DNA of 38,954 bases from Escherichia phage P762, in sequence record MW876471; one strand, 5' to 3'. Below, one piece after another: positions 23,133 through 30,524 of the stretch. Position numbers and translations under genes: made by a program. Below the pieces are notes generated by a model that was given only the letters and a program-made list of their open reading frames with translations, was not told the origin of the DNA and did no database searches. The first letter of the stretch is position 1; the number at the start of each line of letters is the position of its first letter.

Positions 23133-25814
23133 TTAAGCGAATGCAAAGTCTGAAGACAAGATGTCTTCGATATTCAGTTTACCTTTCTTCGGAAGCTCAG
23201 GCAACTTGTCGCGCTGGCTTTCATGAAGCTGGTATTCAAACTGCTCGTAGAAGTCAAGCAGCACATCGTTGTCGCGGTAGGTCTCGACCATTGTCTCACG
23301 GACGCCACGGAACAGATACTCAGCGTCAGCCGGGATGGTCCCGAAGCTATCGTGAATCACTGCGAATGACATCACACCATACTTGTGGTGCGTGTGGACT
23401 ACAGTCTTGCGGAGGTGGCTACCATCTTGTGAGTGGACGAAGTTCGGGCTAATGCCTGACTCCTGCTTGTGCTTGTCCAGCTCTTTCTTCGTGCCTTTGT
23501 TGACTGTAGGCTGAAGGTTGAATGACCCTAAGAACATCAGGTTCAGACGAGTGGTATCCTTCTTGCGGTACTCCTGCCAGACAGGGAAACCATCAGGTGT
23601 GACCCAGTGTACCGGAAGGCAAGGCTTCAGGATTTCTCCAGTCTTCTTGTCTTTCACTTCAGCAGCCAGCAGCTTGGCAGCACCTTGAAGCCACTTCATC
23701 GCGTCAACCGCAGCAACTACGGTCACACTCACAGCTTCCCAAATCATCTTAGCCATGAAGCGGGACGCTTGGCTTGGTTCAGTGAACATAGCGCCAGACC
23801 CTGAGTCAATCGCTGGCATAACGATATCCTCGTAAACTTGGTCTGCGAATCCATACTCTTTCGACCCGTAGGCTAGAGTCATGACCGAACGCTTAGTGAC
23901 CTTGCGTGACATACCGTATGTCAGCCACTGACGGGCCAGCTCTCGTGTTCCCAGCTTGAGACGCTCGGTAATCTCACCAGTCTTCTTGTCCTCGTGAGTC
24001 ACCATCTCGTTGTCCGTACCGTTAACCAGCAGGACTTTAAGCTCCTCCTCAATGCGGTCAGACACAATGCGGTAGATGTCTTGGACCTTACCGGATGGCG
24101 TCAGGTTTACTGCATGTCCACCGATGTGGTCACGAAGCATCGCGCTGAAGTGCTGAATACCAGAGCAGGACCCATCGAACGCTATCGGTAGCGAGCAGGA
24201 GTAAGACAGGCCGTGGTGCATTACGCCAGCATACTCGAAGCAGAACGCGAGGAAACAGAACGGAGAGTCTAACTTGCCCCACCACTCAATACTATCCATC
24301 GGTGCCTTAGCAGTAGCCATAATGTTGTCGTGGTTGTCTTCCACCCACTTGATGCGCTCCTCGAAGGTGACTTTATCGACACCCGCACAGTTTGCACCAT
24401 GGACCTTCAGCCATTTGAAACCATCAGCGCCAATAGGCTTGCCGACTGCCAGAGTCAGGAGACCCTTCTGCATGTCGTTACCTTGAGGGTTAAACATCGG
24501 GACAGCGTAGACACGACCTCGCCAATCCATGTTGTATGGGAACCAGATAGCCTTGAACTGAGAGAACTTGTTCGCTTGGTTAACGATAAAGCTCAGTGAC
24601 AATCTTCGTGACTGTCTGGCCTTCTCGCGGCGATAGATACCAGCAGCAGCTTTCTTCCATGCCTTGAGTTCTTCTTCAGTCTCACCCGCATAATCCTCAG
24701 GCTTCAGTGGTTCCATCTGAGGGATGTCATCAATAGGCGTGTTGTTCAGCTTCTCGACCATGTTCACCACGTCCAGCACCTTCTTGTTCACTTTCCAAGG
24801 CGTATTCTGGATGATGTTAACAGCGTCATAGACTTCAGGCATGTACACGTCTTCGTAACGTGCTACCGCAGACTTAGACCCTAAGCGAATCAGTGGTAAT
24901 GGTCTGCGACCTTTGGCCCAGTACCCACCGCCTACGACACCCGTCCACGGCTTAGGTGGAACGACGCAAGGCTGATAGACCGGTGCAATACCCGCAAGAC
25001 TGAATCCACGTTGTGCCATCTTCTTGACCCAGAAGTCTGACAGGTGGACCATCTCAACGTCAGCCGCTGCATTACCAGCACCGTAACGCTTAAGCTCGAC
25101 CAGTTGTGTAGACTGGATGACAATCTCAAGCATCTTGATGCCAACGTGTACCGCTTCTGTCGGACTCCAAGTTCCCCACGCATCTTCCAGTTGTCCTTGC
25201 TCAAGCATGGATGTCTCAACAGCTTGCATGTAGGCTTTCTTGTAGGATACCCCTGCTCGCTTGTTCAGGTTCTCAGCTATCGCCTTCTTGAAGTGCTCCT
25301 GCTCCTTGTCACGGATGCGACCGAAGCGTATTTCATCCTCAAGTGTGCGACCTATCGCTGAGGCCATAGGTGTAATCGGTATCCCTTCAGGCTTGACCAG
25401 CTTGGATAGGATGACCTTTAGTATGATGACCGCAGCAGACTCGCAAGAGATACGCAGAGAGCGGTCCTTGACGGCCTTCTCTTCAGTGCTCAACATGGTG
25501 AACGCTACGCTTGGACGAGAGGTTGACATCTTCCCGTCTGGACCTTCGTGCCACTCCTTGACGGCTTGCGCAATCTTAGGGACCAGAGTCTGCATCAAAG
25601 GCTTGGCTACCTGATTGTCTGCCAGTTCCCCGCGCTCGGTCTGTCGCTCAAGGTTCTTGATGAAACGTCGCTCGCCTTCAGTGTATGCCTCGTGCTCAAG
25701 CTGAAGCTGTTTGACTGCAAGGTCTTGCCCGTAGTGGTCAGCCAGCAGGTTAAACGGCTCAATGGCGTTCGACACATCAGAGAAGTCGTGTTTGTCAATA
25801 GAGATGACGCTCAT
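23133..25814 (-). CDS. gp1: single-subunit DNA-directed RNA polymerase gp1
   Basis: 893 aa; collinear with T7 RNAP over the whole length (VPPKPWTG, WFPYNMDWRGRVYA, AFCFEYAGV, DGSCSGIQHFSAMLRD, TLAYGSKE, HDSFGT, C-terminal FAFA). Confidence 0.98.
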   Translation of the reverse strand: MSVISIDKHDFSDVSNAIEPFNLLADHYGQDLAVKQLQLEHEAYTEGERRFIKNLERQTERGELADNQVAKPLMQTLVPKIAQAVKEWHEGPDGKMSTSRPSVAFTMLSTEEKAVKDRSLRISCESAAVIILKVILSKLVKPEGIPITPMASAIGRTLEDEIRFGRIRDKEQEHFKKAIAENLNKRAGVSYKKAYMQAVETSMLEQGQLEDAWGTWSPTEAVHVGIKMLEIVIQSTQLVELKRYGAGNAAADVEMVHLSDFWVKKMAQRGFSLAGIAPVYQPCVVPPKPWTGVVGGGYWAKGRRPLPLIRLGSKSAVARYEDVYMPEVYDAVNIIQNTPWKVNKKVLDVVNMVEKLNNTPIDDIPQMEPLKPEDYAGETEEELKAWKKAAAGIYRREKARQSRRLSLSFIVNQANKFSQFKAIWFPYNMDWRGRVYAVPMFNPQGNDMQKGLLTLAVGKPIGADGFKWLKVHGANCAGVDKVTFEERIKWVEDNHDNIMATAKAPMDSIEWWGKLDSPFCFLAFCFEYAGVMHHGLSYSCSLPIAFDGSCSGIQHFSAMLRDHIGGHAVNLTPSGKVQDIYRIVSDRIEEELKVLLVNGTDNEMVTHEDKKTGEITERLKLGTRELARQWLTYGMSRKVTKRSVMTLAYGSKEYGFADQVYEDIVMPAIDSGSGAMFTEPSQASRFMAKMIWEAVSVTVVAAVDAMKWLQGAAKLLAAEVKDKKTGEILKPCLPVHWVTPDGFPVWQEYRKKDTTRLNLMFLGSFNLQPTVNKGTKKELDKHKQESGISPNFVHSQDGSHLRKTVVHTHHKYGVMSFAVIHDSFGTIPADAEYLFRGVRETMVETYRDNDVLLDFYEQFEYQLHESQRDKLPELPKKGKLNIEDILSSDFAFA

Positions 25815-25883
25815 ACTTAAAGTCCTTGTTATTAGTCTTTCACTTAAAGTCTCTTTGGTCTTTCACTTGGAGTCTTAGACCTT

Positions 25884-25906
25884 TAGTCCTATAGTGATAG
25901 TTAAGT
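25884..25906 (-). promoter_or_regulatory. phage RNAP promoter directly upstream of the RNAP gene
   Basis: plus-strand agtcctatagtgatagttaag about 75 nt upstream of the gene 1 ATG. Confidence 0.6.
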
Positions 25907-25911
25907 CAGAA

Positions 25912-26304
25912 TTACTTGCATATCAGTGGGTTAGCGTGCAGATGACTGAAGTCACCGTGAGTCGTGTGCTTGATGGTTGACCGTTGGTCTATCGCCTTCC
26001 AGCCTGAGACCAGAAGTTTACCATCGTCGGTGATTGGTCGTCCACCATACGCCAGCCACATCAGCTCGGACTTATGGCCCTCTGCCATGAGTCGTGCCCG
26101 CAGTACACGGTCGCGCTCCTGCTGTTGACGTGCGGTGTATGACGAGTGGCGATGCACATAATCGGTCTTGTTCCCGGTCTTCTCCCAGTAGTTGCGACCG
26201 CGAGAGTCCGTGCCGACGTACTTCCACTCTACGCCGTTCTTATCAGTGAATGTGCGAAGCGATATGATTGAGTCCATTGCGTGTCCCAGATTTGACATAT
26301 TCAT
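25912..26304 (-). CDS. hypothetical early protein (130 aa) where T7 has the gp0.7 kinase
   Basis: ORF with GGGAG SD; ATG overlaps upstream gene stop (TAATG); no kinase motifs. Confidence 0.7.
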   Translation of the reverse strand: MNMSNLGHAMDSIISLRTFTDKNGVEWKYVGTDSRGRNYWEKTGNKTDYVHRHSSYTARQQQERDRVLRARLMAEGHKSELMWLAYGGRPITDDGKLLVSGWKAIDQRSTIKHTTHGDFSHLHANPLICK

Positions 26305-26501
26305 TACAGTTTGCTCCCAAGTGTTGCTATATCCCAGACGTTCGCTAAGTTACGCGTGAATCGTCCGTTAGGTTGGCGTACAGTCCAGCGACCCAGACTT
26401 ACATGGTTGAATTTGTAGACGTTACGTGCCTTGTTGATGTCTCTCACCAGCACGTAGGCGATAAGTCCATAGCCTAAGATAACCAGAAGTCCCCAGCTCA
26501 T
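26304..26501 (-). CDS. small membrane protein (65 aa, one TM helix)
   Basis: internal ATG (MSWGLLVILGYGLIAYVLV...) used rather than the TTG start of the track ORF at 26606. Confidence 0.55.
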   Translation of the reverse strand: MSWGLLVILGYGLIAYVLVRDINKARNVYKFNHVSLGRWTVRQPNGRFTRNLANVWDIATLGSKL

Positions 26502-26590
26502 TAGAATGACCCTCGCTTGATTGCGTCCAGAAGGCCCCAAGCTATCAGAAAGATGATCGGAGATAAGCACACCCAGTAACCGATATTCAT
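26501..26590 (-). CDS. putative 29-aa hydrophobic peptide
   Basis: MNIGYWVCLSPIIFLIAWGLLDAIKRGSF with AGGAG SD; stop overlaps next ATG. Confidence 0.35.
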   Translation of the reverse strand: MNIGYWVCLSPIIFLIAWGLLDAIKRGSF

Positions 26591-26667
26591 AGTTAACTCC
26601 TATCAATGTAAGTGGTAATCTTTGAGGCCACCTATCAGTTAGATGACCTCTCGTCTATCACTCGCAG

Positions 26668-26793
26668 TTAGTAACCACCTGTCAGCGTTATGGTCAAGCT
26701 CTGGTGATTAGCCACGTAGCAAGCCCCGCGCTTCATCATCTCGTAGCACCCCTCGTAGAACGCCTGTTCACTGCTATAAGTTATCTGGTACAT
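26668..26793 (-). CDS. putative 41-aa early protein
   Basis: MYQITYSSEQAFYEGCYEMMKRGACYVANHQ... with GAGGA SD. Confidence 0.4.
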   Translation of the reverse strand: MYQITYSSEQAFYEGCYEMMKRGACYVANHQSLTITLTGGY

Positions 26794-26794
26794 G

Positions 26795-26941
26795 TTACTT
26801 GTCCTCACTGTCGTGTATGCGCTTGCGGCCCTCGTAGACCGCTTTCAGATGACGCATAGTCGCATCGTGGTTTAACTGCCCGGTCTTGACCATAATCCTG
26901 GCGTTGGTGACGTGGTGCTGGCAGAGACCATAAGTTACCAT
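26795..26941 (-). CDS. putative 48-aa early protein (gene 0.4 position)
   Basis: ATG overlaps ocr stop (ATGA); size and position like T7 gp0.4 but no sequence similarity recognised. Confidence 0.45.
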   Translation of the reverse strand: MVTYGLCQHHVTNARIMVKTGQLNHDATMRHLKAVYEGRKRIHDSEDK

Positions 26942-27273
26942 CACTCGCAGTCCTCTTCAGGCTCGAACCATACCACATCACGGCTATCAGACACATCGTT
27001 ATACAGTGCCTCGTAAATGCGAGCTTGCAGTATGCGCGTTACGTCCTTGGTATCAGGCATCAGCCCAGAGTCTTCGAACTCAATGTCTATACCATCAGCA
27101 GCCATCACCGTGAAAATCTCGTGGTAATAGTGCGGAACCTGACCGTCTACGACCTCATGCAGCGCATCGTGATAATCATCGCCTTCAGTTATTTCGTCGT
27201 ACTGAATGCGATCGTTAAATGCTTCAACAGTTGCAGCCAGCAGCTCATAGTATGCGTTAGCGTTACGTTCCAT
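26941..27273 (-). CDS. ocr: Ocr-like DNA-mimic anti-restriction protein (gene 0.3)
   Basis: acidic 110-aa protein; [41 protein letters not shown] almost identical to T7 Ocr. Confidence 0.93.
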
Positions 27274-27485
27274 AGTTATATCCTCTCAGTTGTTAGTGAC
27301 TATCAGTCAGGGCCTTCAGTCGCTCAAGTCAAGCCCGTCTCGCGGTAGACTCAAAGACCCTGTAGTTAGTCGCTATCGGCGCACATTAAGAGTTTATCCA
27401 GATTGTTAAAGAGCATTCGCGTTGGCTGTCGTCGCCGTGCTATCCCGTTTCAGTGTTGGGACTCACCGTTGTTTCAATGTGGTAC

Positions 27486-27515
27486 AGCTTACATCTTATC
27501 TTTACCGCTTGTCAA
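27486..27515 (-). promoter_or_regulatory. host sigma70-type early promoter (T7 A3-like)
   Basis: minus-strand TTGACA-18 nt-TAAGCT followed by GTACCACAT, as in T7 A2/A3. Confidence 0.6.
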
Positions 27516-27627
27516 CTACTTTCCGTCATCTGCCTGTTTTTCGTATGACTTATCAGGCTGTCTACTTGACCGGGATGACCCGGCGTCTTCACTATCCGGT
27601 GGGTGCCGTGTCGTGTTGACGGAAGCT

Positions 27628-27656
27628 ATTAAGCCATAGTCGAGACTTATAGTCAA
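27628..27656 (-). promoter_or_regulatory. host sigma70-type early promoter (T7 A1-like)
   Basis: minus-strand TTGACTATAAGTCTCGACTATGG-CTTAAT, close to T7 A1. Confidence 0.6.
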
Positions 27657-27808
27657 TAGGTGATTTGAAATTAATATTGATTAAACTATCGTCGGCCCCA
27701 TAGTGACTAAGAGGATATAGTCTTTGACTAACATGTCTTAGACCTTAAGTCTATAGCGTTGTGTCTATTAGCTGTATGTCTCTGACTGTAGGTGTTGGTG
27801 TCTTATGG

Positions 27809-27840
27809 CTGAGACTGTAGGTTGCTGAGACTGTAGGTTG
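27809..27840. repeat. 16-bp tandem direct repeat (ctgagactgtaggttg x2) within an array of short iterated motifs
   Basis: exact tandem duplication; nearby recurrent gactgtaggt, cctatgg and cctatcgt motifs, analogous to the short repeats next to the T7 terminal repeat. Confidence 0.7.
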
Positions 27841-27869
27841 TAGGACCTATGGCTGTTGAGACCTATGGT

Positions 27870-28058
27870 TATACAGATAGAGACTCAGAGACAGACCAAT
27901 AGTCCCAACCTATCGTCCCGACCTCCAGCCATAGCCTCAACCTATCGTTGACCTGAAGTCTTGACCATTGGTCCAACCTTATGATAAACTGGGGTAGGGC
28001 CTTTGGTCTGGACTGAAAGAGGGCCTATGGGGAGACTTGAGGTTCTTGAACTGTGAGA
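27870..28058 (-). repeat. predicted direct terminal repeat of the linear genome, single collapsed copy; left genome end near 28058
   Basis: minus strand from ~28058 reads TCTCACAGTTCAAGAACCTCAAGTCTCCCCATAGGCCC, homologous to the first bases of the T7 terminal repeat; boundaries inferred only. Confidence 0.45.
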
Positions 28059-28304
28059 TGTGGTCTCAAACTTTTGGTCCAAAACTCATCGTCCCTCCTT
28101 AGGAGCCAGCTACTGTAGGTCAAGGACCGTAGGTCTAAGACCATCGGATGACGACCAGTGAACCAATCAGTAGGTAGACCAGAAGTGAGAGCCTGAATGG
28201 TGTTACCTAAAGTCCTTGACTACAGTAGCTAAGGTCAGTAGAGTGAGTCTTTATCCACGTACTGACCTTAGGTCTTCCGCTCATGAATCGTTACCATGAT
28301 TGCG

Positions 28305-28463
28305 TTAATTACACTGAGACACCAGAGAACATACGAGAGTCTCGACCCACCCGACCCACTGACTTCCAGCAGTAACGCCAGCAGCAAGTAGAACAGCAGC
28401 AAGAAACCTGTATGTAGATCGATTGGTCGCCAGAGCTTTAAGTACAGCTTTGGTCTTTGCCAT
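28305..28463 (-). CDS. gp19.5-position small membrane protein (52 aa)
   Basis: AGGAGG SD; MAKTKAVLKALATNRSTYRFLAAVLLAAGVTAGSQWVGWV..., last gene before the genome end. Confidence 0.5.
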   Translation of the reverse strand: MAKTKAVLKALATNRSTYRFLAAVLLAAGVTAGSQWVGWVETLVCSLVSQCN

Positions 28464-28643
28464 ATGCTACATACCTCCTGTATCTATGGTCGGTGACTAT
28501 CTGTATTGGAGGGATTATGATTAATATCACCATCCTTCCATCGGTGCAAGCCTTAGGTAAGAACTCGGAGTCTGCCTCCTAAGGTCTTGCATAAAGTCTG
28601 CATATGTATATTCACTACAGTAATACTATAAGTAACCGGGGGT

Positions 28644-28666
28644 CTTCCCTATAGTGATAGTTAAGT
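28644..28666 (-). promoter_or_regulatory. phage RNAP promoter (phiOR position, after the terminase gene)
   Basis: plus-strand ttccctatagtgatagttaag. Confidence 0.75.
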
Positions 28667-28760
28667 CCAAACTCCTTGTAAAACAGTAGGTTAGACTGGT
28701 AGTAACTATAGGTTACTAACCGCGTATTAATGCAGTTTTCACCCATAGTTATTCATACAG

Positions 28761-30524
28761 CTAGTGGAACGTAACGTATGACCCTAGTCCTAGCTCGTCG
28801 TCAGTATCGTGAGTTACCCGGACCCCATTGTCCCAGAACTCAGTGTGGATGGACTCGAAGCCTTTCCGTGGGTTCTCCATCTGTTCCTCCAGCCACTCCT
28901 CAGTGACTTCACGTTCGCCTTTGTTGGCATCCTTAGCCATAGACTCAACGAAGAACTGCACACCGATAGCCAGCGCATCAAGTCGGTCATCGTGTGCCAA
29001 TGCTCCACGTTCACGAGAGATACGGGTCATCTGGTAGAAGAGAGAGTAGATAGGGTTACGAACACCATCCTTGTCAGAGGCTGTCTGGTAGTCTTGGACG
29101 ATAGCAGCAGCGTTGACGATAAGTCTGTGAGACCCCATGATAGGCTCCAGAACGTCACAGATGCGGAGTTCTTTCTGACCCTTACTCTTCACTTCAGTTA
29201 CAGCCGCAGGATGTATACGTGCCGCTACAGGCTTGAATAGCTCAAGGTACATACCATCACCGAAGTTACCCTCAATGACGTATTCGTTGACCTTCCACTT
29301 ACGACCAATCTTAGCCAAGGCTTCCAGCGTAGAGTCTTCATAACCACCACGCATACCACCAACTTCCATAGCGAAGATGTAACCGTTTAGCTGATACAGT
29401 ACCGCATAACCAGTTTCATCCTTACCACGACCACTAGGGTCAATGACCAGAATCTTCTGGGTGTACGAACTGAAGGCAGAACCTACAGTCTGATACGTGT
29501 GGTATGAGTCACCCATGAGTCCAACGTTAGGGACGTCCTCGCGCTTGTTCTGAGGGTTTGGCAGCCATTGGTAGACCATTGGGCTGGACGCTGGGTCCAA
29601 GTCGGCTACGATAAGGTCACGGAGCTTCAGAGGGTACTTCTCAGCATCACTCAGGTTCGGGTTAAGCATGAATTGTAGAGCGAAGCCAGCTTTACCATAG
29701 GACAGCTCACGTTCCTTCAGGTCCGTATCATCAAATCGTACTTCGTCTGTCGGACGCCAGTAGAAGGACTCAGGGTCCTCTTCCAGTTCTGCCTGAAGCA
29801 TAGGAGCCAGACGGTCGCCGTAAGACTGCCAGTCCTTCCTGTCGCGTGGATAACGAGCTGGCCAGATAGTAGTGGTATACCCACGACCCTCCAACTCACG
29901 ATACAGGGTCATCTCGTTCTGAGGAGTGCCCAGATAGATGATTGTACCTCCCGGCTTCAGGATAGCGTCGAACTCTTTCACAAGCTCTGACAGTCGGTCT
30001 CGCGCAGCCTGAGTAGCAGAGTTGTTTGGAACCTCCACGTCATCAGCAATAAGGATGTCAGCACGACTACCAGTCAACTGACCAGTGATGCCAACGGACT
30101 TAACCGAAGGTGAGTGGTCCGGCTTTGCTGGTCCAACGTCGAAGCTGATAACCGCATCCCTCTGTCCCTGCTTAGGTTTGAGTTCCTGAAGCTGAGGCAT
30201 GAGGTCGATGATTCGCTTGATGAAGATGGAGTTAGCATCTGCTCGTTCCTTTGAGGCCGACACAATCATGAACTTCAAGTCTGGGTTATTCCATAGCTTC
30301 CAGACCACGAAGGCACACGTAATGAAGGACTTCCCGATACCACGGAACGCCTGTAGGATGAAACGCCTGTTGTCCCCAGCCGATAGTTTCTTCGCCATGT
30401 CAATCTGGCAGCGAGTTGGTACTGGGAGTGACAGAGCTTTCCACAGGACGAACAGGAAGAACACGAAGTCTGCCTTCATACGGGCAGTCATTAGCGCCTG
30501 ACGCGCCACTAAGTCTTTACTCAA
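28761..30524 (-). CDS. gp19: terminase large subunit gp19
   Basis: 587 aa; [125 protein letters not shown] blocks match T7 gp19. Confidence 0.97.

Follow-up and report, generated by a model that had tools for sequence, protein, structure and literature searches.

Our data indicate that the early region of Escherichia phage P762 (sequence record MW876471), the 1.5-kb stretch that runs from the anti-restriction gene ocr (gene 0.3) to the RNA polymerase (RNAP) gene (gene 1), is very probably a normal class I (early) operon of Kayfunavirus (K1F/EcoDS1-like, T7 group), present here as an allele without the optional kinase cassette. The DNA analysed, hereafter called the window, comprises 38,954 nucleotides (nt) and represents a circularly permuted T7-type genome with all genes on the minus strand. 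A preliminary description of this region had listed five small open reading frames (ORFs) of 48, 41, 29, 65 and 130 amino acids (aa) between ocr and the RNAP gene and had proposed that they stand in for the gp0.7 kinase of T7. The five ORFs were confirmed (Table 1), the lack of a kinase-sized ORF was borne out, and the view of the region as a host-RNAP-transcribed early module, with products mostly without a known function, holds. The proposed replacement of the kinase does not, since relatives that carry a kinase gene also carry the 65-aa and 130-aa genes.

The ocr-to-gene 1 stretch matches 260 phage records, the best of which are Kayfunavirus genomes with 87-93% identity (Klebsiella phage SEA1f, Escherichia phages Bas105, Peacock and EcoDS1, and Citrobacter phage SH3); the window is ~90% identical to SEA1f and EcoDS1. 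The layout is shared by EcoDS1, K1F, SEA1f, SH3-SH5 and Vec13. Gene order in EcoDS1 is the same as in the window (0.3, 0.35, 0.6, 0.38, promoter, gene 1), with gp0.38 93% and gp0.6 85% identical and gp0.35 identical over residues 1-45, but EcoDS1 lacks the 41-aa gene and has a wrong frame annotated over the 29-aa gene. In a metagenomic relative (L114) the order is identical throughout, with products of 110, 51, 41, 29, 65, 130 and 893 aa. K1F and Vec13 differ from the window in having a 55-aa membrane protein (PHROG 7319) in the slot of the 29-aa gene, and in some relatives the block includes a kinase, an ORF of 115 aa, an ORF of HNH/Endo VII-like type or, where the window has ocr, a S-adenosylmethionine (SAM) lyase. 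As a further copy, ~90% identical, of a block known from more than 200 deposited phage genomes, the region adds little by itself; the practical interest lies in the roles of the widespread 65-aa gp0.6 and of gp0.38, the 130-aa product. Kayfunaviruses are under development as therapeutics, the targets being K1 E. coli, Salmonella Typhi and Enterobacter.

Five small genes under purifying selection

For comparison, the orthologues of each ORF were traced in a set of 27 related loci, compiled from GenBank phages and IMG/VR. The five ORFs are intact in 17-27 of these loci each, and the ATG codon and Shine-Dalgarno sequence are kept wherever an ORF is present, save for exceptions in two loci: one has ATA instead of ATG at the 48-aa start (L010), and in the other a deletion has joined the 29-aa ORF with the end of the 65-aa gene (L011). 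The 65-aa gene is absent from one further locus (L009). In the window, a Shine-Dalgarno-like sequence stands 7-13 nt upstream of every ORF, that of the 29-aa ORF being a strong ribosome binding site (RBS), TAGGAGttaactATG. The 48-aa ORF starts at an ATG, the program-made listing of ORFs extending its frame to a GTG at 26944.

The arrangement of starts and stops supports translational coupling, as the preliminary description had it; the single chain that it described is instead two chains, parted by a 77-nt gap with a structured hairpin between the 41-aa and 29-aa ORFs. Within the first chain, ocr and the 48-aa ORF share a TGATG and the 48-aa ORF is followed by the 41-aa ORF through TAAcATG; within the second, a TAATG overlap is found at both the 29/65-aa and the 65/130-aa junctions.

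The ratio of nonsynonymous to synonymous divergence (pN/pS) is 0.26 for the 48-aa ORF (on 45 codons), 0.17 for the 41-aa ORF, 0.28 for the 29-aa ORF, 0.33 for the 65-aa ORF and 0.28 for the core of the 130-aa ORF. Variable sites at codon positions 1, 2 and 3 number 11, 6 and 32 in the 41-aa ORF, 13, 9 and 28 in the 29-aa ORF, and 25, 16 and 46 in the 65-aa ORF. These patterns indicate that all five ORFs are coding genes under purifying selection (pN/pS 0.17-0.33). That some of them, mainly the 29-aa and 41-aa ORFs, might be chance frames in leader or intergenic RNA is suggested by their very small size, by the absence of any match to the 29-aa ORF in PHROG, Pfam or NCBIfam, and by existing annotation, which places another frame over this ORF in EcoDS1 and nothing there in several other records. 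We regard this as highly improbable, given that the 29-aa ORF is intact in 18 of 19 loci and the 41-aa ORF in 17 of 17, each with a conserved ATG and RBS, that pN/pS is low in both with variation concentrated at third codon positions, that substitutions in the 29-aa peptide keep its hydrophobic helix, and that both ORFs are tied to their neighbours through stop/start overlaps.

The small proteins and their families

Searches of Pfam, NCBIfam and PADLOC with all five proteins gave nothing significant, and PDB sequence searches with gp0.38 profiles and with the 41-aa and 65-aa proteins (p41 and p65) likewise returned nothing. The preliminary description had held that none of the products is recognisable, a claim that fails for the 48-aa protein (p48), which falls in the Gp0.4 family, for p65, of the T3-type gp0.6/0.6A family, and for the 130-aa protein, of PHROG 7066; p41 and the 29-aa protein (p29) recur in 111 and 94 phage records, respectively, the latter often unannotated. 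Thus two of the five products can be placed by sequence in named T7/T3 early families (0.4 and T3-type 0.6), and p41, p29 and gp0.38 are members of conserved, uncharacterised phage families. The contrary outcome that the preliminary description had raised, ordinary homologues of 0.4, 0.5 and 0.6, was found for 0.4 and for T3-type 0.6; for 0.5 the correspondence is only positional, and it does not extend to the 41-aa and 130-aa proteins.

The 48-aa protein matches PHROG 5058 (4e-27) with a cross-match to PHROG 7202, the T7 Gp0.4 family (1.4e-5), and T7 Gp0.4 itself matches PHROG 7202 (4.6e-33) with a reciprocal match to PHROG 5058 (9e-5); by blastp the two proteins are 39% identical over 41 aa. 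T7 Gp0.4 resembles p48 in its length (~50 aa), in its position immediately 3' of gene 0.3 and in its stop/start overlap, and differs in belonging to a separate PHROG (7202 vs 5058). In three close relatives (L113-L115), the 51-aa protein at the same position (0.35 family) carries the domain PF26807, Phage_T7_GP04. T7 Gp0.4 binds FtsZ and stops division, and substitutions at V15, V22, W28, M32, L35 or Y39 abolish inhibition (PMC13423816). In our alignment, five of these six positions (V15, V22, M32, L35 and Y39) are conserved in the Kayfunavirus proteins, with the sixth, W28, replaced by His, and the M, L and Y of the FtsZ-interface set are invariant across all six aligned sequences. On this sequence evidence p48 is an ordinary Gp0.4 homologue and probably has the same function, FtsZ inhibition. 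During K1F infection division is blocked, FtsZ is mislocalised and filamentous multi-ring cells are formed (PMC9372555); the '0.35' gene of Kayfunavirus, as a homologue of the FtsZ inhibitor Gp0.4, may account for this block. The residues of T7 Gp0.4 that are sensed by CapRel-Ebc (A12, T14, L16, S19 and R23) all differ in p48, which is therefore probably not a trigger of that defence. The C-terminus of p48 is slightly shorter than that of EcoDS1 gp0.35.

The 65-aa protein matches PHROG 2385 (7.9e-29) and is 38% identical to T3 gp0.6 and 41% to BA14 gp0.6A over ~60 aa, with tblastn matches on the annotated 0.6A genes of K11 and BA14. It has a transmembrane (TM) helix at residues 3-19 (KD17 2.22; 2.33 at residues 2-18 in T3 gp0.6), an isoelectric point (pI) of 11.0 and a highly conserved basic tail with the motif RWTVRQPNGRF. 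T3 gp0.6 and the gp0.6A of BA14 and K11 share the N-terminal TM helix, the basic C-terminal part and the sequence TVR-x-x-NGRF, and their genes, like the 65-aa gene, lie in the early region shortly upstream of gene 0.7 or gene 1. By contrast, blastp of p65 against T7 gp0.6A gave no match, and T7 gp0.6A maps to PHROG 8393 and PHROG 29241, not to PHROG 2385. These comparisons place p65 with the T3-type gp0.6/0.6A and not with the T7 type. T7 gp0.6 is a reported MreB inhibitor; as p65 is unrelated to it (PHROG 8393), that function is not transferable. The family occurs in 644 phage records across Studiervirinae, which ranks this gp0.6 among the most widespread of the early proteins that are still uncharacterised in the subfamily.

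A single TM helix in each of the 29-aa and 65-aa products had been predicted in the preliminary description, and the corresponding hydrophobic segments were found at residues 8-24 and 3-19; that of p29 has a KD17 of 2.05. T7 gene 0.5 resembles the 29-aa gene in lying directly after an RNase III hairpin and in encoding a short hydrophobic peptide, a likeness of position without sequence similarity. The 29-aa membrane-peptide gene is thus real, yet often missed or called in the wrong frame. In EcoDS1 (L001), a 47-aa ORF of 'unknown product' at 1493-1636 lies in another frame over the 29-aa gene (1563-1652), and in SEA1f, Dev2, SFPH2 and others nothing is annotated over it, a recurrent gap in annotation. 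For p41, beyond its recurrence in phage records, a weak match to PHROG 33188 (9e-6) was obtained, and nothing in Pfam, NCBIfam, PADLOC or PDB.

An optional kinase and the RNase III-type hairpin

We searched the whole window by tblastn with T7 gp0.7 and with a 244-aa kinase of Kayfunavirus and obtained one chance match (E=0.19). A 244-aa gene that encodes a kinase domain only is found in 8 of the 27 relatives, among them Enterobacter phage vB_VIPECLMC06 and CR8, between the 41-aa and the 29/65-aa genes, and the 65-aa and gp0.38 genes coexist with it in all eight. The same coexistence is seen in phage B1 (PMC12785254). The small ORFs of the window therefore do not replace the kinase, which is an optional cassette, absent here. 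In T7 and T3, gp0.7, which joins the kinase to a C-terminal shut-off domain, is encoded in the same early-region stretch in which these relatives have the kinase domain as a separate gene; the window has no gp0.7.

Approximately 55 nt of the window (26609-26663), the hairpin segment of the 77-nt gap, align with both flanks of the kinase gene in vB_VIPECLMC06 (L002). The hairpin, with a minimum free energy of -23.7 kcal/mol (z = -2.9), has the same architecture and the same AGGTCAT...GTGGCCT upper stem as the annotated R0.5 and R1 sites of T3, and a consensus of the Kayfunavirus copies with the two T3 sites contains 17 pairs, of which 6 show compensatory changes. Like R0.5 and R1 of T7 and T3, it measures ~50 nt, has a lower stem, an internal loop and the AGGUCAU...GUGGCCU sequences, and lies between early cistrons. 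An Rfam scan of 25500-28800 gave no match, and the leader between gp0.38 and gene 1 has no significant structure (z = -0.09), so that we claim no R1-type site there. From its structure, the hairpin would be a site of RNase III cleavage.

The hairpin is present in nearly all related loci, with a second copy where an extra cassette is present; the window has the single hairpin and no cassette. Bracketing pairs lie at 2055-2104 and 2859-2911 in L002, at 1741-1789 and 2164-2215 in L008, and at 2653-2701 and 3074-3126 in L017, and the bracketed cassettes are the 244-aa kinase-only gene and a 115-aa ORF (MTAKTRNVFS...). Recombination between such repeated hairpins could bring about the gain and loss of cassettes. 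The early region is built, like that of T7 and T3, as a mosaic in which RNase III-type sites set off one group of cistrons from the next. For annotation, the kinase counts as an optional cassette, bounded by RNase III-type hairpins in vB_VIPECLMC06, the relative examined in detail.

The gp0.38 protein

The 130-aa protein belongs to the family of EcoDS1 gp0.38 (PHROG 7066, 1.1e-42, on residues 43-130), which also occurs in CR8. It consists of a conserved 84-aa core (residues ~47-130), with the motif ERD..VL...AEG.K.EL...YGG.P..DGKLL...HT..GDFSHL, and a variable N-terminal extension (residues 1-46). Members fall into length classes of 130, 108 and 86 aa with differing N-termini, the extension taking at least three forms. 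We found the family in 223 phage records. Its proteins form 136 clusters at 90% identity; at 50% identity, an exhaustive hidden Markov model search of 1.84 billion proteins gave 14 clusters, all from the same small phage family. The exact 130-aa sequence of the window had no match in the contig index. In each of the 27 loci, the distant CR8 (L027) and L111 included, the core is found ~100-165 nt upstream of gene 1; in 26 of them the 65-aa gene comes before the core, either next to it or separated from it by one inserted ORF.

With a pI of 9.6 gp0.38 is basic, and it is rich in His. AlphaFold2 modelling gave a pLDDT of 53 with a shallow alignment and of 73 once distant members were added; in the latter model the helical core is confident (residues 60-110, pLDDT >90), and the N-terminal extension is predicted, with moderate confidence, as a helix plus a beta-hairpin. 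Sequence searches of Pfam, NCBIfam, PADLOC and PDB gave no significant match, a comparison of all 26 family members with Pfam gave no consistent family, and fold searches of PDB and BFVD gave no relative outside its narrow family; the extension alone has a sub-threshold NCBIfam match to the phiSA1p31 domain (E=0.14).

The location of gp0.38 raises the question of whether the cluster might after all be a novel module replacing gp0.7, in which the 130-aa protein would take over the C-terminal, kinase-independent shut-off of transcription. Its slot immediately upstream of gene 1 is that of the gp0.7 C-terminal domain in T7, T3 and BA14, the Kayfunavirus kinases, when present, consist of the kinase domain only, and the two elements are mutually exclusive, gp0.38 being found in none of 83 gp0.7 loci and the C-terminal domain in none of the 27 gp0.38 loci. 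This exclusivity is, however, confounded with phylogeny, as a difference between genera, and is weak evidence even of an analogous function. Profile comparison of the gp0.38 core by hhalign with more than 70 gp0.7 C-terminal domains (the C-terminal ~120 residues, drawn from 80 IMG/VR loci) gave probabilities below 1%, both local and global, the 65-aa and gp0.38 genes are not alternatives to the kinase, and gp2 and gp5.7, two inhibitors of host RNAP, have homologues in this phage, so that there is no gap in shut-off to fill. We consider this replacement quite unlikely. The hhalign comparison had been prompted by weak blastp matches to BA14 gp0.7 (E=0.03), and gp0.38 as a detached gp0.7 C-terminal domain was rejected on its negative outcome.

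A second alternative is that the cluster, mainly gp0.38 and p41, consists of anti-defence proteins like Ocr, each directed against a specific bacterial immune system and not against a housekeeping target. Both genes lie near ocr in the classical home of anti-defence genes, the region is a mosaic in which ocr is exchanged for SAM lyase and cassettes are gained and lost between close relatives (PMC12785254), and the several forms of the gp0.38 extension are as expected in an arms race. Against this, no similarity to known anti-defence or defence-associated proteins was detected in PADLOC or in the fold searches, and the gp0.38 core and p65 are near-universal in the genus and strongly conserved, which fits a conserved host target better than a defence system confined to certain strains. 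Such a role seems rather unlikely to us.

Because gp0.38 is near-universal in Kayfunavirus, always stands just before the RNAP gene and has no relatives in sequence or structure, we tentatively entertain the possibility that it is a host-takeover or anti-defence factor with an undescribed fold and target, with which the co-translated 29-aa and 65-aa products may act at the inner membrane. As a best guess, gp0.38 would be a small protein that binds a host factor, any target being named with low confidence.

Two further features of the gene were observed. In the 3' half of the core (25912-26031), pS is 0.19 vs 0.42, about half the synonymous divergence, and the DNA becomes more similar to that of relatives, with 95-96% identity over the stretch that runs from the 3' part of the core into gene 1, to ~25701; possible causes are an overlapping constraint at the nucleotide level (promoter/leader) or a recombination boundary inside the gene. 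In the K1F reference (L030, NC_007456, ~2208-2465), the gp0.38 orthologue is unannotated and is interrupted after codon 13 by an in-frame stop (MKTVYINRPSIR*); the gene may be a pseudogene here, the stop may be a sequencing error, or a shorter product may be made from a later Met.

Proposed working of the early block

Taken together, the layout suggests the following scheme. Host RNA polymerase would transcribe the early block from promoters at the left end, and the RNase III-type hairpin would probably split the transcript into an ocr-0.4-p41 unit and a p29-0.6-0.38 unit. The Gp0.4 homologue most likely binds FtsZ and keeps the host from dividing. The 29-aa and 65-aa products are predicted to go into the inner membrane, the basic tail of the latter being exposed to the cytoplasm, and gp0.38, predicted to be soluble, basic and mainly helical, presumably acts at an early stage of infection by binding a host factor.

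Several points weigh against the reading of the block as a normal early operon with these roles. At the position of T7 Gp0.4 W28, where FtsZ inhibition is lost with either W28L or W28A (PMC13423816), the Kayfunavirus proteins of our alignment all have His, and FtsZ binding by p48 is therefore plausible, not assured. The PF26807 match belongs to the 51-aa protein of relatives, which is linked to p48 by position and by the 0.35 family. The in-frame stop in K1F may mean that the gp0.38 gene is dispensable in the laboratory. The statement that p41, p29, p65 and gp0.38 bind host factors is a generic one, drawn from their position and size, and these four proteins are without a homologue of known function; literature searches turned up no study of function for the early genes of Kayfunavirus, for gp0.35 or gp0.38, or for the T3-type gp0.6.

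Boundaries of the operon and neighbouring features

The features of the early block and its surroundings are compiled in Table 1. Ocr is 53% identical to T7 Ocr (Pfam PF08684, 1.6e-32; PHROG 2568, 6.4e-52). A simple sigma-70 scan found no minus-strand promoter, and the putative host promoter is called on its homology to EcoDS1. The phage promoter, ACTATCACTATAGG, occurs 11 times in the window, always on the minus strand, vs 0.31 expected by chance; one copy stands directly after the stop codon of the 130-aa gene, upstream of gene 1, and the 130-aa gene therefore closes the class I unit that host RNAP transcribes. The first 195 aa of the gene 1 product are 92-99% identical in most Kayfunavirus relatives and 65-79% in three divergent loci.

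Table 1. Coordinates of the early block and flanking features in the window.
Feature	Position	Strand	Remark
Terminase large subunit	28761-30524	-	
Terminal-repeat homologue	27879-28058		marks genome left end
Putative host (sigma-70 type) early promoter	27620-27656	-	92% over 37 nt to first annotated EcoDS1 'host RNAP promoter' 469-505
Gene 0.3, ocr DNA-mimic anti-restriction protein, 110 aa	26941-27273	-	first gene of coupled chain 1
48-aa ORF, T7 Gp0.4-family homologue (= EcoDS1 gp0.35), probable FtsZ inhibitor	26795-26941	-	
41-aa soluble protein, two conserved Cys	26668-26793	-	
Putative RNase III-type processing hairpin, T7/T3 R0.5 counterpart	26610-26662	-	separates coupled chains
29-aa single-pass membrane peptide, positional analogue of T7 gene 0.5	26501-26590	-	opens chain 2
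65-aa basic membrane-anchored protein, T3-type gp0.6 / BA14 and K11 gp0.6A (PHROG 2385)	26304-26501	-	
130-aa protein, EcoDS1 gp0.38 family (PHROG 7066)	25912-26304	-	
Phage-RNAP promoter	25885-25906	-	22/22 identical to annotated EcoDS1 'phi'
Gene 1, T7-type single-subunit RNA polymerase, 893 aa	23133-25814	-	downstream boundary of early block

The anti-restriction slot is swapped within the genus. The ocr gene is absent from about half of the related loci (L011-L015, L018-L023), and at least one locus has a SAM lyase instead (L111, 2623-3087), as does phage B1 (PMC12785254). GenBank gives the ocr gene of Vec13 (L005, 1528-1860) the label 'protein kinase', an error by which surveys of kinases in this genus could be misled.

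Four loci (L014, 3094-3516; L015, 3004-3426; L022, 3064-3498; L023, 2720-3142) contain a Cys-rich ORF of ~140 aa between the gp0.6 and gp0.38 genes. Its motif AVDHCH..GKVRGLLC..CN..LG, judged by eye, is one that we take to be Endo VII/HNH-like, and the ORF, absent from the window, looks like a homing-endonuclease insertion.

Finally, a hydrophobic ORF of 52 aa lies at 28305-28463 (minus strand) of the window, between the terminase gene and the terminal repeat; an ORF of the same length occupies the corresponding place in L111, L113 and L114, and it is probably the counterpart of gene 19.5.

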